Assembly (NCBI GenBank): GCA_965208165.1
Contig: OZ242323.1
Span: 1,364,078 to 1,428,077 of the forward strand
Reading direction: 5' to 3'
Length of the DNA stretch: 64,000 nt
From: Vicinamibacterales bacterium
GTDB lineage: Bacteria; Acidobacteriota; Vicinamibacteria; Vicinamibacterales; UBA8438
Within the stretch, counting starts at the first letter, position 1. Every line of letters starts with the position of its first letter. Position numbers and translations under genes: made by a program. A model generated the notes under the pieces. That model was not told the DNA's origin, made no database searches, and worked only from the letters and a program-made list of their open reading frames with translations. Below, piece after piece: positions 3,479-63,055 of the stretch.

Positions 3479-3498
3479 CCTAGCTAGACCTAGCTAGG
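3479..3498. promoter_or_regulatory. putative operator: CTAGCTAG-AC-CTAGCTAG double palindrome upstream of the Phd-VapC-Fic operon
   Basis: Two copies of the palindromic octamer CTAGCTAG, 2 nt apart, about 16 nt upstream of the antitoxin RBS. Typical position for an antitoxin autoregulatory site. Confidence 0.4.
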
Positions 3499-11653: not shown

Positions 11654-11771
11654 GCTAGGAGTCTGCGCCGCAGGAAATTTTCGCCCCAACATGAAGTGGT
11701 TAATTCCAGTGCCAACCACAACATGCAGTAGCCGATCGGGCCCAAGACCGTTCCACGGCGCAGACTCCTAG
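11654..11771. repeat. 118-bp AT-rich element bounded by perfect 16-bp inverted repeats CTAGGAGTCTGCGCCG
   Basis: The IRs sit at 11654..11669 and 11756..11771; the interior is about 45% GC in a 70% GC genome. The element abuts the MITE-like copy A. Confidence 0.5.
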
Positions 11772-11879
11772 TGTCCCGCCACCGTGGTTCGAGGAACAAT
11801 CCTGTGCGGCACTACTTTAGTCTTGCAGGCAGTTACCGCGATCCAGAGCTTTCGCGAAACTTCACGGCCCCGACACTAG
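11768..11879 (+). mobile_element. MITE-like 112-bp element, copy A (TIR CTAGTGTC...GACACTAG)
   Basis: 8-bp perfect terminal inverted repeat. About 80% identical over its full length to 60489..60600, and in reverse to 60079..60185. Confidence 0.55.
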
Positions 11880-12460
11880 AAGATGGCGATCGGGTTCACC
11901 GGCGACCCCGTGCCGCCCGGCACCCGTAGCGGGGCCACCACCAGCAGGAACTCCCAGCGGTTGAGCCGGGCCGCGGTCTCGGCCGCCGCGTCGAGGTCGA
12001 TGTTGTCGAGCAGGTTCATCCCGCGCGCGACGATGGCGAAGCGGTGGATGGGGTTGACGCGCAGCCCCGGCACGCTGTCGGGCGCCTCGTGCACCGAGTC
12101 GGCCCCGAGCAGGGCGATGTCGCGCTCGGCCAGGAACGGGATGACCGAGGCGTCCCACCCCGACATCTCCCGCGTCGGCCCCACCGCCTCGCGGTAGGCC
12201 CAGCGGCCGGTGCGCAGCAGCAGCGCGTCGCCCGGCCCCAGCCGCACGCCGGCATACTCTTCCCACGCCTCGATGTCCTCGCGGTACAGCTTCGTGCCCG
12301 GCTCGAGGTACGGCACGCCCTTCAGCCGGGGCATGTCGACGAGCACCCCACGCGTCACCAGGCCGTCCCTCATCTGGGTGGTGTCCATCAGCGAGGGGTG
12401 CGGCTCTTTTTCATCGGCGATCGAGGGGTCCATGGGCTTCTGCGAGGAGCATGGCAAGAC

Positions 12461-14080
12461 CTACTTGATCCGTCGAAGGCGGGGTGAGGGTGGTGGGGGC
12501 GGCTCGGCGACGGGCGGTACTATCCCGTCGGCGTAGCGCTGGGCGTGGTTCCGTTCGTACTCGCGCGCTTCGTGGAAGGTCCAGTACGCATCGAAGTCGC
12601 CGCTGGCGCGCAGCGCCCGGAGCTTCAACACCGCCTCGGCCCCGACCAGGCGCCACCGGGCGCCGGTCAATTCCATCCGGTCGCGGACGAGGTGCCGGCA
12701 CGCCCCTTCGACAACGCCGGTGGCGATGGGATAGCCCGCCGCGAGGTAGCGGTCGTAGTGCAGATACGGTGCGTACTTCAGCAGGTAGTCCGCGCACGTA
12801 TCGACCGGCTTGCGGGTGTCGGGCGACAAGCCGGCGACGGTCGCCGCACGCCGCATCGACGACGCCACCTGGCGGGCCTTGCCCTCGAGAATGTCCCGCA
12901 CCCGCGTCCACGCCCAACACGCCAGCTCGGGGCTCCCCTCGCGATGGAATACGCGCGCCGCCTTCCAGACGTACTCGACCACGTGGATGATGTCCAGGAC
13001 CACCGTGACCTCCACCCCGAATTCTGCGGCGCCCGCTTCCACCAGGTCGAGCTGCGTCTCGGCCCCGTCGACGAGCACCACCCAGCGCTTGACGCGCTTC
13101 GGGTCGTGGCGCTCCGCTTCCAGCATCGCCTCGACGATCACCTCCCCGGGCTCCCGTTCGAGGCTCGCCCAGACCCGTTTCGCCACCGGGCGGGGCCGCA
13201 CCGCCGGGGGCGCGGCCTTCTTGCCCTTGCCCTTCTTGGTCTTGTCCCCCGGCTGTCGGGGCATCAAGCTCTGCAGGAACTCCTCCGCACTCCGCACGAA
13301 CGGCGCGACCGTGTAGACGGCGGCCACCGTCGCCATCCGCTTCGAGTGCTTCTTCTCCCCCGGCTTGAGGCGATTGAACGGGGAGAGCTGCTCCCGTTGC
13401 CGCCGACGCCGCTCGGCCTCCTTGCGCGTCGCCTCGCGCAGGTCCTCGCGATGCAGCACCACCCCCTTGCCGTCGAAGGTGAGCACGACAACCGACTCCT
13501 CCGGGGCCGGCTCGCCCGTCGCCGCACGGCGGGCTTCGTAGAACGCGTCGAAGTCCACGGCCGCGCGAGCCGCCAACTGCTCCGCCTGACGCTTCGGCAC
13601 CTCCGCGCCGGTACTCCGGGACAGATCGAACAACGCTTCGTCGAAAGACCGCGAGGCCGCCGCCTCCGCCACCCGCCGACGCACCTCCAGCGAGTAGCGC
13701 TCCACCGGCAGATTGAGCGACGCATCGAGCGGATGGAGACTATCGTGACCGGGGCGCGCATAGCCCACGCGACCGACATCCACCGTCCCGAAGACCGTCT
13801 CCACCGCGCGTTTGTGCACGCGCCGTTCCCGGCGCTCGACACCATCAGACCCCGCGACCGGACCCGCCGCCTCCCCAGGACTGCGTTGGTCGAGGTGACC
13901 TTGCAGCAGCTTCTGCATCAGCTCCTGGCCCCGCCGGTGCAGCTCCCGTTCGAGATCGCTCTCACTCATCTGCCGGGCCTCACGCGAAGAGAGGTAGGCT
14001 TTGGCCTCCGCAAAGGCCTCGTCCGCCGCCGCATACGGCGCCGGTGCGGATGCCGCGGCGGGGTGGGGAACAACTCGCAC
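12461..14080 (-). CDS. ISKra4-family transposase
   Basis: 539 aa; C-terminal GACRHLVRDRMELTGARWRLVGAEAVLKLRALRASGDFDAYWTFHEAREYERNH is characteristic of ISKra4-like transposases. Confidence 0.8.
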   Translation of the reverse strand: MRVVPHPAAASAPAPYAAADEAFAEAKAYLSSREARQMSESDLERELHRRGQELMQKLLQGHLDQRSPGEAAGPVAGSDGVERRERRVHKRAVETVFGTVDVGRVGYARPGHDSLHPLDASLNLPVERYSLEVRRRVAEAAASRSFDEALFDLSRSTGAEVPKRQAEQLAARAAVDFDAFYEARRAATGEPAPEESVVVLTFDGKGVVLHREDLREATRKEAERRRRQREQLSPFNRLKPGEKKHSKRMATVAAVYTVAPFVRSAEEFLQSLMPRQPGDKTKKGKGKKAAPPAVRPRPVAKRVWASLEREPGEVIVEAMLEAERHDPKRVKRWVVLVDGAETQLDLVEAGAAEFGVEVTVVLDIIHVVEYVWKAARVFHREGSPELACWAWTRVRDILEGKARQVASSMRRAATVAGLSPDTRKPVDTCADYLLKYAPYLHYDRYLAAGYPIATGVVEGACRHLVRDRMELTGARWRLVGAEAVLKLRALRASGDFDAYWTFHEAREYERNHAQRYADGIVPPVAEPPPPPSPRLRRIK

Positions 14081-14083
14081 GGC

Positions 14084-15001
14084 TCAACCCTCCCGAAGCC
14101 GCCGCTTCGCATCCCGGACCAAAGGATAGACCAGAACCGTCTTGGGCGCCTCGCCGACACGGCGGCCGTACCGGTCCATCCGCCCTCGACCGGCCGTGGC
14201 GCCCAACGCCACCCAGTTGGCGGCGCGATACGAACCGCCGTGGTGCCGGCTCGGGTCCACCAGCGTCTCCACGAGCCAGGGCTCGAGGCCGTAGCGGCGC
14301 GGCCAGTCGACCATCAAGTGCCCGAGCCCGCGCGACAGGACTGCGCTGGCCAGGTTCCTCACCCCGACCCACGGCAGCAGCAGGAAGCGGCTGTTGTTGA
14401 CCACGTGCTGGAGATTCCGCGCCCGAGTCGCGTCGTCCCAGCCGACCCAGCCATCCCGCGCCGCCATCCGCCACGCCGGGCTGGAGAACTGCAGGCAGCC
14501 GACCACCACCCGCTGAGGCCTCGCCGCGAACACCAGATAGCGCAGGTGGGCGCCGAAGGGGACCGTGTGCCCGAGGTAGTGGTAGCGGCCCACGAGCTCC
14601 CGGAACAGCAGGCGCTCGGCCGGCTCGCGTACCAGCTCGACATCCAGCGGCTCGACGTCGCGCACGCTGCCGACGAGCGGGCAACCCGGCTCTCCCGCCG
14701 CCGTCCGGGGCACGCGGGTGACCGAGCCGGGGGCGCGGCCCAGGCGCTTGTCCGGCAGCGCCACCGCACCCTCCGCGTCGAGCCGCTCCAGGAACTCGCG
14801 GCACTCGCGCGCCTTCAGCCTCCCGTTCGGGCGCCGCCACCGCAACAGCTCGCACACCGTGCGCGCCAGCTCCATCCGGCTCAAGCCCGGACAGTCCCGC
14901 ACGACCTCGCGGATCAGCGTCATCTCTCGCCCGCTGAAGGTGCGTCCCGAGAATCTCGTCGTCGCAGCCGCCATCGCAGGGGCTTTCCTTCCCCACGACA
15001 C
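14084..15001 (-). CDS. IS passenger protein (DUF4338-like)
   Basis: 305 aa; ends 4 nt before the transposase start; lies inside the IS inverted repeats; ...LVGRYHYLGHTVPFGAHLRYLVF...NLQHVVNNSRFLLLPWV. Family call from memory. Confidence 0.6.
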   Translation of the reverse strand: MSWGRKAPAMAAATTRFSGRTFSGREMTLIREVVRDCPGLSRMELARTVCELLRWRRPNGRLKARECREFLERLDAEGAVALPDKRLGRAPGSVTRVPRTAAGEPGCPLVGSVRDVEPLDVELVREPAERLLFRELVGRYHYLGHTVPFGAHLRYLVFAARPQRVVVGCLQFSSPAWRMAARDGWVGWDDATRARNLQHVVNNSRFLLLPWVGVRNLASAVLSRGLGHLMVDWPRRYGLEPWLVETLVDPSRHHGGSYRAANWVALGATAGRGRMDRYGRRVGEAPKTVLVYPLVRDAKRRLREG

Positions 15002-15748
15002 CGTACCAAAACGCCGCGCGAATGTCCAGAGGGAGCGCCGGACGGGAAGACCGGAGCGCGCCGGCGTCGTGATCAGGCCGGGCGAAGGCCCGAAAGCGGC
15101 GGGTGGAGACGCTGGCCGGAAGCTGTCCCCGGCCAGAGCGCACTAGCGAGCGCGGGCCCCGTGGGCATAACTCCTTATGAATGAGTGAGATAACATTCTA
15201 CGCAAAAGAGCCGCACCCATCAGCGAGCAGCCGTCCTCGGTGACCACGTCGCGGAAGTCGAGGCCGTTGTAGAGCCTGTCCTTGTAGAAGACGTGGCACA
15301 GCCCGTCGAGGTGGGAGTAGCTCACGCCGTGGAAATAGACCTCGACCCGGTCGCCCGAGTTCTGCCCCTCGGGATTGACGTTCATCTGCAGCACATAGGG
15401 CTCGGCCGCGTCGGGCGCTTCCTCGGTGAGGAAGTCGTGGGACAGCGACACGGTGGTGCCGGTCCGAACGAGGGCCGCCGCCTCGCGGCGCTTCTCGTCC
15501 GTCATCAGGTTGGCGGCGCCGATCTGGTCGTCGTCGCCCCACCGGCCCCAGTTCGACAGCTCGTCCATCCACCGGTCGAACTGCGCGATGCTGACCGGCT
15601 CGCGCTCGGGCGACTGGGCCGGTGCGTCGGCGGTCGACCCGACCAGGCCGAGTCCGGTGATGCCCGCCACGAGTATCGATGTTCTCCTCATGTTGCTCTC
15701 CCTGCGCCCGGTTCGGTGTTGGCCTGCTGGCGTCAGTGCGGTGAGATG

Positions 15749-16096: not shown

Positions 16097-16470
16097 GGTT
16101 CACGCCAGTCCAAGCACCTCCTCCATCACCAGTCGCGGCCCGCGGTCGTGGTCCCGCACGACGTTGCGCGTCCGGTTTCACGCGAGTCCAAGCACGTCTT
16201 CCATGACCAGCCGCGGACCGCGGTCGTGGTCCCGTACGACGTTGCGCGTCCGGTCTCACGCGAGTCCAAGCACCTCCATGACCAGCCGCGGACCGCGGTC
16301 GTGGTCCCGTACGACGTTGCGCGTCCGGTTTCACGCGAGTCCAAGCACCTCCTCCATGACCAGCCGCGGACCGCGGTCGTGGTCCCGTACGACGTTGCGC
16401 GTCCGGTCTCACGCGAGTCCAAGCACCTCCTCCATGACCAGCCGCGGACCGCGGTCGTGGTCCCGCACGA
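16097..16470. repeat. tandem repeat: 75-bp unit x5 duplicating the 3' end plus stop codon of the carboxylesterase gene
   Basis: Unit GGT(Y)TCACGCGAGTCCAAGCACCTCCTCCATGACCAGCCGCGGACCGCGGTCGTGGTCCCGTACGACGTTGCGCGTCC; one copy is 72 bp. Each copy encodes ...RDHDRGPRLVMEEVLGLA* on the minus strand. The last copy is the genuine gene end. Confidence 0.85.
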
Positions 16471-59968: not shown

Positions 59969-60058
59969 CTACTCCGCCAGCGGATGCGGATGGACCTGGA
60001 AGCTCACTGTCTCGTTCGTCATCCGCTTGCCGCCCTCGTTGTGCCTGTTGGCAATCCC
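59969..60058. repeat. displaced ~90-bp copy (about 88% identity) of the 3' end plus stop of gene 60702..62864
   Basis: CTACTCCGCCAGCGGATGCGG..GGACCTGGAAGC..AC..TCTCG..CGTCATCC.CTTGCCGCCCTCGTTGTGCC.GTT matches 60702..60791; encodes ..NEGGKRMTNETVSFQVHPHPLAE* versus genuine ..NEGGKGMTSEIVRFQVRPHPLAE*. Confidence 0.75.
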
Positions 60059-60078
60059 GGCAGCTCCCCGTTGCGTTC

Positions 60079-60185
60079 CTATTGTCCCGGCCGTGAAGTT
60101 CGCGAAAGCGCCGGATCGCTGTAAATAACCGTAAACACAGAACAACTGCCGCGTAGAATTGTTCCGCGAACCACCGTTCGACACC
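60079..60185 (-). mobile_element. MITE-like element copy B (reverse orientation, one end degenerate)
   Basis: Reverse complement aligns with copies A and C (..GGCCGTGAAGTTCGCGAAAGC..GGATCGC.. / ..TTGTTCCGCGAACCACC..). Confidence 0.5.
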
Positions 60186-60285
60186 ACGCCAACGGTGCAC
60201 GGGTCGCAGCTCGCCTGCCCGGAAGCCGAGACAGCCGCGCCCGCGAGCAGCACCGTCGTCAGGAGTCGGGGCGGCCTCACCGTTC

Positions 60286-60474
60286 TCACCTGCGCCACAC
60301 CACGTTGGCCATGACGTGCAAGACGGCAATCGTGGCCACGACGCCCACCCCGAGCGATAGCGGCACAAGCGACACGACGGCTGCGTACAGGAGCAACGGC
60401 CCGAGGCCCCAGGCGGTCAGCAACAGCGCACCGAGCAGGACGAGGGCGAGAACGAAGAAAACGAACTCCCTCAT
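60286..60474 (-). CDS. hypothetical 62-aa two-TM membrane protein, bracketed by inverted MITE-like copies
   Basis: MREFVFFVLALVLLGALLLTAWGLGPLLLYAAVVSLVPLSLGVGVVATIAVLHVMANVVWRR; internal Met start chosen. The longer track ORF would run into MITE copy C. Confidence 0.4.
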   Translation of the reverse strand: MREFVFFVLALVLLGALLLTAWGLGPLLLYAAVVSLVPLSLGVGVVATIAVLHVMANVVWRR

Positions 60475-60488
60475 CACCACCGGCTCAT

Positions 60489-60600
60489 CTAGTGTCCCGC
60501 AACTGTGGTTCGTGGAACAGTCTTGAGCGGCATTACTTCTGTTTTTGCAGTCACTTACGGATACCAAAACCGCTCACGAACTTCACGGCCGGGACACTGG
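60489..60600 (+). mobile_element. MITE-like 112-bp element copy C (TIR CTAGTGTCCCG / CGGGACACTGG)
   Basis: Same length and orientation as copy A; 10 of 11 bp terminal inverted repeat. Confidence 0.55.
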
Positions 60601-60701: not shown

Positions 60702-62864
60702 CTACTCCGCCAGCGGATGCGGCCGGACCTGGAAGCGTACTATCTCGCTCGTCATCCCCTTGCCGCCCTCGTTGTGCCAGTTCGTCACCGAGTCGTAGCT
60801 GGCCCACACGCCGCGCCCCTTCCAGCCGGCGCCGGCGTCGTCGATGCGGCCGTCGAGGCCGCGGGTGTAGAAGCCGAGCGGATAGGGGACCCGCAGCGTG
60901 ACCCACTCGCCGGTTCCGGGCAGCAGCGCGAGTAGCGCATCCGAGCTGGTGCCGTTCGCGATGGGGACGTTCTCGCCGAGCCCCAGCGTGTCGAACTGGT
61001 CGACCCAGTTGTAGTAGTGGAAGTCGGCGCTGCCCGCCGCCTCCACGCCCTTCATCTGCGGGCCGGGGGTCGAGTACAGCGTCCACCCCTCGGGGCAGTG
61101 CTGCCCGGTGGCGGTGGGGCCGTTCAGCACCCCGCACTTGCCGCGGTCGAAGCTCGCGAGGTGGCCGCTGCCGCCTAGCGCGGTCCAGAGGACCCCGTTG
61201 CGGTCGACGTCGATGCCGCGGCCGCCGTGGCCCCACTGGCCCGGGTCGACGTCGGGGTTCTCGAACGGCGGCTCGTAGACCTCGGCGATGCAGGTCTCGG
61301 GCGGGTTGTCGCCGAGCTCGAGCCGGACGATGTTGCCCGGCACCGGCAGGCGCCGCGCGATCCAGATGGAGCCGTCGACGGGGTTGGGGATGACGCCGTA
61401 GGCGAACCCGTCGATGCGCATGTCCTTCGCGGGGTCGAGCGGCTCGCCGGGCTCGGTGTAGGCGCCGATGACGCCGTCGCCGCTGGTGTCGACGATGGTG
61501 GGGCACCAGCCCTGGGCCGCCTGCTCGTCGCCGGTCTCGTCGTAGAGCCGGGTGTTGAGCCACCCGACGACGTCCGTCGACCCGCTCAGCCAGAGGGTGT
61601 CGTCCTCGTCCTCGGCGAACTGCAGGTGGTGGGTCATGTAGCAGGTGTCGACGTGCACGAACTCGCCGCTCTCGACGTCGTAGTACGAGAGCTGCCGCTG
61701 ACTGCGGTCGATGGGGAAGTGCCGCGCCGAGGGATGGTCCGAGCCCGCCTTGCACCAGTCGGGGTTGTCGGACGGCCGGATGAGCTGGGTGATCCAGAGG
61801 CGCCCCTTGTCGTCCATCATCGGGTTGTGGGCGCTGAAGCCGCGCGCCGTCGAGCGCTCGTCGCCCCAGTACGGCGACGGTATGCGGGCGGCGGTGCCGG
61901 CGTAGGAGTCGCCGCGCTCCGCCATCGGCACGCGGGTCGTCATGTCCAGCCGCTCCGAGCGGTGGGTCACCGGGTCGGTGATGACGAGGCCGGCGCCGCC
62001 GACGCCGTAGACCGGGCCGTTGGCGTACAGGTGGGGGTTGCGCTTGTCGGTGGCGATCTCGTCGTGGACCATCGCGATGGGGTCGCCCCAGCCCCACATC
62101 GTCAGCACCAGGTTGCGTTCCTGCCCCTGCGGGCGGGGCGGCGCCGGCGGGACCTCGCCGGCCGCGATGCGGTCGGTCCAGTCGGCGAACAGGCCCAGCG
62201 CGCGCTCGCGCCCCATGCGGTTGAGCCCGGCGTTCATGCTCGGGCCGCTACGCCCCACCTGCACCCGGTGGTCCCACGCGTCGAGGGTCGAGTCGAAGTC
62301 GTCGATGTCCAGCATGGGCATCTCGCGGGTGGCCACGTTGCCCATCTGGTGGCAGAGCTGACAGCCGTCCTTCAGCCGGTCGACCCACTCGGCCTGGTGC
62401 CGCATGGCCCGGCCGATGCCGTTGCCGTTCGGGCCGGTGCCCGGGAACTCGCTCGCCGCCGGCACCTCGAGCAGCGAGTACCAGTAGTTGGCGGGGTAGA
62501 TGCGCGCCGCCTCCTGCGGGGTGGCCGCCGCGGTCACCGTCAGGGTCACCTCGTCCCCGGGCCGCGCCGCCTGCTTCCCGGAGTCGACGAGGCCGTAGCC
62601 GCGCACCCAGAGCTCGTAGCCGGCGTCCGGCAGGTCGGGCACGAGAAACCGGCCGTCGTCGCCGGTGACGACGATCTTGCGGAACGTGGTCTCGAGGTCG
62701 CCGGTCTCGGCGATCACCCATACCCCGGCCTCGCCGCCGCCGGCGCCCCGCACGACGCCGCTGATGTCCTCGTCGGCCGCCGCCGCGCCGCCGCCGGTCA
62801 GCAACAGGACGACGCCGGCCAGGAGCAGAGCCCCCGGGAATCCGATCCGCGATGTCACGCGCAT
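60702..62864 (-). CDS. large secreted protein: N-terminal CarboxypepD_reg-like domain plus CxxCH motif
   Basis: Signal peptide MRVTSRIGFPGALLLAGVVLLL; GVVRGAGGGEAGVWVIAETGD...FRKIVVTGDDGRFLVPDL (carboxypeptidase-regulatory-like fold); CQLCH haem motif; strong AAGGAGG RBS. The track ORF has a 376-codon false 5' extension. Confidence 0.7.
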   Translation of the reverse strand: MRVTSRIGFPGALLLAGVVLLLTGGGAAAADEDISGVVRGAGGGEAGVWVIAETGDLETTFRKIVVTGDDGRFLVPDLPDAGYELWVRGYGLVDSGKQAARPGDEVTLTVTAAATPQEAARIYPANYWYSLLEVPAASEFPGTGPNGNGIGRAMRHQAEWVDRLKDGCQLCHQMGNVATREMPMLDIDDFDSTLDAWDHRVQVGRSGPSMNAGLNRMGRERALGLFADWTDRIAAGEVPPAPPRPQGQERNLVLTMWGWGDPIAMVHDEIATDKRNPHLYANGPVYGVGGAGLVITDPVTHRSERLDMTTRVPMAERGDSYAGTAARIPSPYWGDERSTARGFSAHNPMMDDKGRLWITQLIRPSDNPDWCKAGSDHPSARHFPIDRSQRQLSYYDVESGEFVHVDTCYMTHHLQFAEDEDDTLWLSGSTDVVGWLNTRLYDETGDEQAAQGWCPTIVDTSGDGVIGAYTEPGEPLDPAKDMRIDGFAYGVIPNPVDGSIWIARRLPVPGNIVRLELGDNPPETCIAEVYEPPFENPDVDPGQWGHGGRGIDVDRNGVLWTALGGSGHLASFDRGKCGVLNGPTATGQHCPEGWTLYSTPGPQMKGVEAAGSADFHYYNWVDQFDTLGLGENVPIANGTSSDALLALLPGTGEWVTLRVPYPLGFYTRGLDGRIDDAGAGWKGRGVWASYDSVTNWHNEGGKGMTSEIVRFQVRPHPLAE

Positions 62865-63055
62865 GTCGACCTCCTTGAGCAACCGGGTCCACGTCGATGG
62901 CGTACAGTGTATGTCGCCGTGAGGGAAAGTGGCACCGTCGATGTGGTGCGCGCGGCGAGGAACACCGAACTGCGTCTTCGATGCCCCGCCCGCTGGCGGC
63001 GAGGCGAGACCTCGCGTTGCACCGAGAGCCGCGGGGCGGCTAGCGGGCCGAAGGG

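Follow-up and report, generated by a model that had tools for sequence, protein, structure and literature searches.

Three copies of a short repeat, hereafter F1, lie in the window analyzed here, a stretch of 64,000 nucleotides from a Vicinamibacterales bacterium. This raises the question of whether F1 is a mobile element, as the initial annotation had proposed by calling it MITE-like, or a conserved structured small RNA, which had been kept as the alternative. Copy 1 (11768..11879, + strand) and copy 2 (60489..60600, + strand) turned out to be complete at the positions first reported, and both are exactly 112 bp long, in agreement with the equal length claimed for the complete copies. Copy 3 (60079..60190, - strand) has indeed one eroded end, the left one (~60180-60190), but it extends to ~60190 and not only to 60185; next to its intact right end lies ATAG (which reads CTAT on the + strand, 60079-60082). 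BLASTN comparison of the three copies showed that the repeat is real, with a pairwise identity of 76 to 78%, slightly lower than the about 80% given previously. A profile derived from the three copies scored its own members at E values of 1e-31 to 1e-33 in the 64-kb window and revealed no fourth copy there. The G+C content of the copies is 53 to 57%, compared to 71% for the window.

The tetranucleotide CTAG was found 15 times in the window versus about 168 times expected from base composition. Because CTAG is so rare, its presence at both copy ends is not due to chance. Copy 1 consists of a 104-bp element (11772-11875) located between CTAG 11768-11771 and CTAG 11876-11879, and copy 2 is flanked by CTAG (60489-60492) and CTGG (60597-60600). 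The terminal inverted repeats of 8 to 11 bp starting with CTAG described earlier (CTAGTGTC...GACACTAG) do exist. However, they represent only the outer part of an imperfect inverted repeat of about 28 nt, and the outer CTAG is better read as a duplicated target, which leaves an element proper of 104 bp with TGT...ACA ends.

The F1 family in Vicinamibacterales genomes

We scanned one genome per bacterial and archaeal species for the pattern GTGGTTCGNGGAAC-N(45-75)-AACTTCACGGCC. Twenty-four loci were recovered beyond the window, all of them in MAGs of Vicinamibacteria/Vicinamibacterales (Acidobacteriota), with up to 5 pattern-matching copies per genome. The flanking proteins of the window also had their best matches in Acidobacteria MAGs. 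Together, the window and the 24 loci provided an aligned set of 28 copies, including one extra tandem copy found by nhmmer. Nearly all scanned copies align end to end with the 112-bp model (nhmmer), and copy 1 matched the 28-copy profile at an E value of 6e-26. The blocks GTGGTTCG.GGAAC and AACTTCACGGCC are invariant in this set partly as an artefact, since the scan pattern required them. The searchable literature on Acidobacteria or Vicinamibacter MITEs and on small repeats in Vicinamibacteria gave nothing specific.

Among the 28 aligned copies, similarity stops sharply where CTAG meets TGTCCyG on one side and where CGGGACA meets CTAG on the other, and the flanks are unrelated. The TGTCC...GGACA ends are present in nearly all copies. 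The left end reads TGTCCyG-AACyGTGGTTCGyGGAA, and the right end, in reverse complement, TGTCCCGGCCGTGAAGTTCGyGAAA. The first and last ~29 columns thus form an imperfect inverted repeat of about 28 nt, with 19 conserved pairs and 95.7% of the cells paired, while the central ~60 nt are variable and unstructured; distinct subfamilies are visible. The adjoining genes are unrelated to each other and encode TonB-dependent receptors, BshC, cyclophilins, an M1 peptidase, an ankyrin protein, and a SprT-like protein.

The mean identity of the family is 77%. The copies at three loci on chromosome OZ253457.1 (L008, L010, and L006b) are nevertheless 98 to 99% identical, and the copies of L021 and L007, whose flanks are different, are 96% identical. 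Such near-identical copies at separate loci show that F1 was recently active. In contrast, the closest sampled relative of any window copy is at most 83% identical, and the window copies therefore look old. The MITE reading is thereby borne out by many further copies in unrelated contexts, sharp boundaries, CTAG on both sides, near-identical dispersed copies, and the element-free orthologous loci described below; F1 neither occupies the same context everywhere nor is confined to the window.

A solitary 24-nt match to the right end of F1 (CTAGCGTCCCGGCCGTGAAGTTCG) was observed in a metagenome contig, L033 (5800-5823), and the same sequence is present in L036. The GTG AAG TTC of the L033 match is the start (MKF...) of a luciferase-like monooxygenase gene. 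The match may be due to chance or to capture of an element end.

All three window copies are intergenic and lie beside mobile or decayed DNA, as originally noted. Copy 1, which is also adjoined by an aldolase gene whose protein had no exact match on record, abuts a cyclase gene truncated by an IS (ORF 11876-12457, - strand), the TAG stop codon of which (11876-11878) is the TAG of the right CTAG of copy 1. Cyclase homology ends at ~12393, the first position of an ISKra4-like IS (12393..15221, - strand) that carries a transposase gene (12461-14080), a DruA-like ORF (14084-15142), and 18-nt inverted repeats (GAGGGGTGCGGCTCTTTT; 12393-12410 and 15204-15221). This IS removed the N-terminal ~135 codons of the cyclase, which comprises 329 aa in the orthologues versus 193 aa here, with ~170 homologous codons; the C terminus (...NPIAIF) is identical to that of the full-length orthologues. 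The inverted repeats of the ISKra4-like IS are unrelated to the F1 termini, as had been pointed out, and this IS was consequently rejected as the F1 partner.

Eight orthologous cyclase loci (L025-L029 and L037-L039) from five lineages, with 93 to 98% amino acid identity, all lack F1. The cyclase stop codon is TAG in the window versus TGA in all five sampled orthologous lineages. Either the TAG was present beforehand in the window's own lineage or the stop codon was replaced by the insertion; a preexisting CTAG at this site is assumed. A clean empty site for copy 1 was rejected because the orthologues have a TGA stop codon and a rearranged spacer. Elsewhere in the window, a unit of ~78 bp is repeated four times in tandem (16210-16465; GCCGCGGACCGCGGTCGTGGTCCCG at 16210, 16285, 16363, and 16441), located either upstream of a carboxylesterase gene or within its 5' end.

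Copies 2 and 3 are located between a gene encoding a 720-aa secreted protein (60702-62900) and a phosphotriesterase-family gene. At the orthologous loci L031 and L032, the 720-aa gene is directly followed by the phosphotriesterase gene and F1 is absent. Copy 3 lies at a deletion junction inside a remnant ORF (59969..60298, - strand). A paralogue of the 720-aa gene is represented there by its signal-peptide N terminus and its ~35 final codons (...NEGGKRMTNETVSFQVHPHPLAE). The space separating copy 2 from copy 3 also holds a strongly hydrophobic ORF of 62 codons (60286-60474, - strand; MREFVFFVLALVLL...), which had no Pfam match and is missing from L031 and L032. This arrangement was found again in a second sample (L030), where the contig breaks inside copy 3. 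A clean empty site for copies 2 and 3 was rejected, since the orthologous spacers have been rebuilt from other repeats.

Two further observations concern the 720-aa gene itself. Its last ~25 codons (...NEGGK.MT.E.V.FQV.PHPLAE) occur twice in the window (59969-60062 and 60702-60790), with ~88% identity, and tandem repeats made of the motif CTGGCGGAGTAG and a GC-rich hairpin lie downstream of it in L032 (5681-6000). The 3' end of this gene may represent another repeat system.

CTAG sites, stop codons, and neighboring elements

In 12 of the 28 copies, the TAG stop codon of a gene is the TAG of the terminal CTAG (overlap of 2 to 3 nt; long ORFs with high third-position G+C), and a stricter stop-overlap test recovers 9 copies. 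Seven of these 12 copies run in the same direction as the upstream gene (sense), and 5 run against it (antisense). The outer-membrane (TonB-dependent) receptors with F1 at their stop codon keep the canonical C-terminal Phe; the other hosts at stop codons are the remaining genes named above and the window's cyclase.

At one of the filled sites (L008), the receptor gene ends ...GTGTTC TAG and is followed by F1 and then by CTAG CGGC. Its orthologues without F1 end GTGTTCTAG (L040; 97% amino acid identity, genome of a different species) and ATGTTCTAG (L041; 90% amino acid identity). Both share the TTCTAG end with L008, and CTAG is present once. The CTAG target therefore preexists at the stop codon, in a comparison that covers the upstream side and the CTAG only, the three genomes being different downstream. 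No perfectly clean pair of filled and empty sites was found for F1 itself. CTAG or a one-step variant of it is present on both sides of most complete copies, so that the search for target duplications at more copies suggested by the initial annotation, like that for more copies as such (24 more loci, several copies per genome), gave a positive answer.

The flanks of F1 revealed further CTAG-bounded repeats, namely, F2, F3, F4, and a 148-bp element in L003. F2 corresponds to GAGTCTGCGCCGTAGAACGGTGCAGACTC hairpins, short 29-nt versions of which are common in related loci between CTAG-like tetranucleotides. Its long form in the window (11655..11771, 117 bp) has inverted ends of 12 to 18 nt (GAGTCTGCGCCG...) and has the CTAG at 11768-11771 in common with copy 1. 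F3 is 103 bp long with the ends TGCTGCGTCA...TGACGCACCA (TG...CA), and F4 has the ends CCCGGAAATCGCC....

For F3, a filled and an empty site could be compared in two closely related MAGs. L001 (1725-1835) and L005 (~2710) are identical except for 103 bp and a second CTAG in L001. The insertion point of F3 is precisely the CTAG that separates the stop codon of a cyclophilin gene from an F1 copy. This difference is a textbook insertion polymorphism. Arrays in which neighboring elements share one CTAG were found for F1-F1 (L006 and L017), F1-F2 (the window, L001, L005, L024, and L035), and F1-F3 (L001, L016, L017, and L021). Such arrays are expected if each insertion regenerates the target.

Two larger elements are flanked by CTAG as well, an IS1380-type IS of 1703 bp in L015 (1199-2901; PF13701, Pfam) and an IS4-type IS of 2426 bp in L009 (1596-4021; Tnp_DNA_bind, DDE_Tnp_1, and DruA-like domain). 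Both were considered as F1 partners and rejected, as their ends are unrelated. In the Vicinamibacterales genomes sampled, CTAG thus seems to serve mobile DNA generally as a landing site, and it is depleted roughly ten-fold in the fetched Vicinamibacterales DNA. A broader hypothesis would be that at least four MITE families together with the IS1380-like and IS4-like elements form a guild using CTAG as landing site, that CTAGs at stop codons are harmless docking sites seeding the arrays, and that the depletion is linked to targeting. If so, the sites would be marked by, for example, a host factor, or by a modification or repair system specific for CTAG. Alternatively, some F1 copies could have been domesticated as 3'-end hairpins or gene starts. 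We regard these readings as improbable.

An intergenic spacer of the window harbors four CTAGs within 18 bp (3480-3497; CTAGCTAGACCTAGCTAG). This cluster could be a near-palindromic operator, or it could stem from excisions that twice left a pair of duplicated targets as footprints.

Coding potential and RNA structure

We rejected protein coding. One frame is open in all three window copies, but indels shift the frame across the 28 copies, column variability has no 3-base periodicity, and the amino acid sequence is not conserved.

If F1 were instead a structured RNA, either a conserved small RNA or a module acting in cis, such as a 3'-end hairpin stabilizing or terminating the upstream mRNA, it would be kept for its function and not through its mobility. 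The location of 12 of the 28 copies immediately after a stop codon would fit this, and so would the long stem into which the ends can pair. Among the three window copies, the strongest hairpin is that of copy 2 (-42.7 kcal/mol, z -4.0), but copies 1 and 3 are not more stable than shuffled sequences (z -1.5 and 0.0). A promoter-like sequence, TAAACA-16-TAGAAT, also points in the direction of an RNA. It is located in copy 3 (window 60132-60159, +), on the antisense strand of the element, and is shared with the subfamily of L014 and L003, while being absent from the other copies.

The alignment, however, argues against conservation of an RNA structure. The RNAalifold consensus contains the terminal stem only, that is, the terminal repeat, to the exclusion of the central region, and its covariation term is -0.01. 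Two double-change pairs were counted versus 1.1 in shuffles, 157 of 500 shuffles being as high. Comparing copy 2 with copy 3 had suggested a T:A / C:G covariation at GTTCG[N]G / C[N]CGAAC; it was rejected, since it was gone with more copies, among which there are many C:A mismatches. Searching the window against Rfam 15 gave no match at the gathering score, and a permissive Rfam search returned as its sole sub-threshold match a chance plant miRNA on the neighboring F2 element. Moreover, the stem is not followed by a T-run, the element occurs in both orientations relative to the upstream gene, and orthologous genes lack it. The structure and covariation analysis proposed at the outset thus found no covariation across the 28 aligned copies. 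Based on the Rfam searches, the consensus fold, and the pair counts, we rejected a structured RNA and consider that F1 is hardly likely at all to be one.

Probable mode of transposition and relation to known systems

We conclude, with a probability of roughly 0.8, that F1 is a MITE made of 104 bp of noncoding DNA plus a 4-bp CTAG duplication, which is moved in trans by a transposase encoded elsewhere. A DDE-type transposase would bind both F1 ends, excise the element, and paste it into the tetranucleotide CTAG, which would end up on both sides, most simply as a 4-bp target duplication. CTAG is about ten-fold depleted, and a major source of it is a TAG stop codon preceded by C, so that insertions would often fall exactly on stop codons. 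The duplication would restore the stop codon and leave the gene unharmed, and each insertion would make a new CTAG, so that elements would pile up and share CTAGs.

We infer DDE cut-and-paste chemistry and a duplication of 4 bp rather than 2 bp. By analogy, the TGT...ACA ends and the CTAG target suggest an IS481/IS3-like partner; an IS5-like or IS630-like partner is possible. The initial annotation had placed the autonomous partner, if any, outside the window. Indeed, none was found in the window, but the wider search found none either: no transposase gene with F1 ends was detected in ~360 kb of Vicinamibacterales DNA, JGI metagenome contigs, viral contigs, plasmids, and phages, and this includes the IS5- or IS630-family transposase with matching inverted repeats proposed at the time. 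Searching for the parent with the right-end 22-mer yielded 0 viral and 4 metagenome loci, none of them a full-length IS. Plasmids and phages contained no sequence similar to F1, and neither the gene and Pfam tables of the fetched loci nor inverted-repeat searches contained an rve-type (IS481) transposase with matching ends.

The bases outside CTAG differ between the two sides of the element. In L008, for example, the left CTAG is preceded by T and the right one by an A belonging to the element, and the bases following CTAG are likewise different. The duplication is therefore at most 4 bp. It would be shorter if F1 belonged to the IS630/Tc1-mariner type; the element would then be GTGTCC...GGACAC (106 bp), inserted at the TA inside CTAG and duplicating TA only. 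According to Tenzen & Ohtsubo 1991, cited in PMC2170065, IS630 prefers TA within 5'-CTAG-3'. The flanks of three copies (CTAG/CTAA in L014, GTAG/CTAG in L024, and .../CTAC in L019) fit a TA duplication better, and unequal flanks such as those of L014 and the G-TAG stop codon of L019 would need no extra mutations. The F3 pair and the L008 comparison are equally compatible with a TA duplication. On the other hand, the non-CTAG flanks are identical in L009 (CTAA/CTAA) and L013 (CCGG/CCGG), and those of L009 fit a 4-bp duplication better. A TA duplication would also require F1, F2, F3, F4, and the IS1380-like and IS4-like elements all to start with G and end with C. The transposase of L015 is of the IS1380 type (PF13701), a family with 4- to 5-bp duplications and CC ends, which fit CC directly following CTAG. 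Finally, no IS630-type transposase was found in any examined locus. Insertion at TA is thus unlikely.

The same flanks could in principle be left by a single-strand HUH/tyrosine enzyme (IS200/IS605 palindrome-associated or REP/RAYT) inserting F1 3' of CTAG. No duplication would then be involved, and the second CTAG would belong to the element as the cleavage site at its right end; by sequence alone, an element ending in CTAG looks the same as a 4-bp duplication. F1 can fold as a hairpin in single-stranded DNA, and the short F2 repeats, with their 29-nt hairpins between CTAG-like tetranucleotides, look REP-like. But the ends of F1 are inverted copies over ~28 nt, the signature of a DDE transposase binding both ends, whereas IS200/IS605 ends carry different subterminal hairpins instead of a single long terminal inverted repeat. 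In addition, the examined loci contained no TnpA/RAYT gene. We consider this mechanism very improbable and favor a MITE mobilized by a DDE transposase.

Vicinamibacteria abound in soil, and nearly all that is known about them comes from metagenome-assembled genomes. In such genomes, F1 and its siblings break short-read assemblies, as seen for L030, whose contig ends inside a copy. These elements also mark where a genome has changed recently, the gene remnant at copy 3 being an example, and add noncoding DNA just past stop codons, which annotation pipelines will miss. Its docking at stop codons is a tidy example of target choice making a parasite harmless. Our understanding of how such elements work is unchanged by F1.

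Among known systems, the IS481 family has TGT ends (ISLxc2, TGTGTTTCTCAGG...) and a duplicated 6-bp target containing CTAG (NCTAGN), in which a TAG stop codon may lie (PMC2516522). F1 similarly has TGT...ACA termini, a CTAG target, and a TAG stop codon in the target. Unlike IS481 elements, it has flanks matching over 4 bp only and not over the 6 bp of NCTAGN, and it carries no transposase, no rve partner with the same ends having been found. IS5 ends begin with GGAAGG, and those of the IS5 group with GG or GA. F1 differs in beginning with TGTCC, and F2 (GAGTCTG...) looks more IS5-like than F1. As to the target, IS5 duplicates the 4-bp sequence Py-T-A-Pu (YTAR), mostly CTAG, with CTAA and TTAG as minor targets (PMC5493358). 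The F1 flanks conform to YTAR over 4 bp, CTAG being dominant and one copy having CTAA on both sides.

F1 resembles RUP and the Correia elements in being noncoding, ~100 to 150 bp in size, and bounded by terminal inverted repeats, with many mostly intergenic copies. The IS630-derived MITEs (RUP of Streptococcus pneumoniae) and the TA-flanked Correia elements of Neisseria duplicate TA only. F1 is different in that a 4-bp duplication is better supported, though not proven, and it has no sequence similarity to them. IS630 itself duplicates TA inside CTAG, according to work cited in PMC2170065. REPs, as described in PMC3733652, are 20 to 40 bp long, have a GTAG or CGTC tag, and are associated with RAYT enzymes. 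Like REPs and BIMEs, F1 is short, repeated, hairpin-forming, often located just after genes, and clustered; unlike them, it is 104 bp long and has true terminal inverted repeats with CTAG on both sides.

F1 shares with MITEs in general a size in the range of ~50 to 800 bp, the lack of coding capacity, terminal inverted repeats, a target-site duplication, and presence or absence among relatives. Overall, F1, together with several siblings, represents a MITE family that had not been described before, from a poorly studied soil lineage. It is of a well-known kind, its behavior is that of known elements, and its docking at stop codons and its CTAG arrays follow neatly from a known type of target preference.
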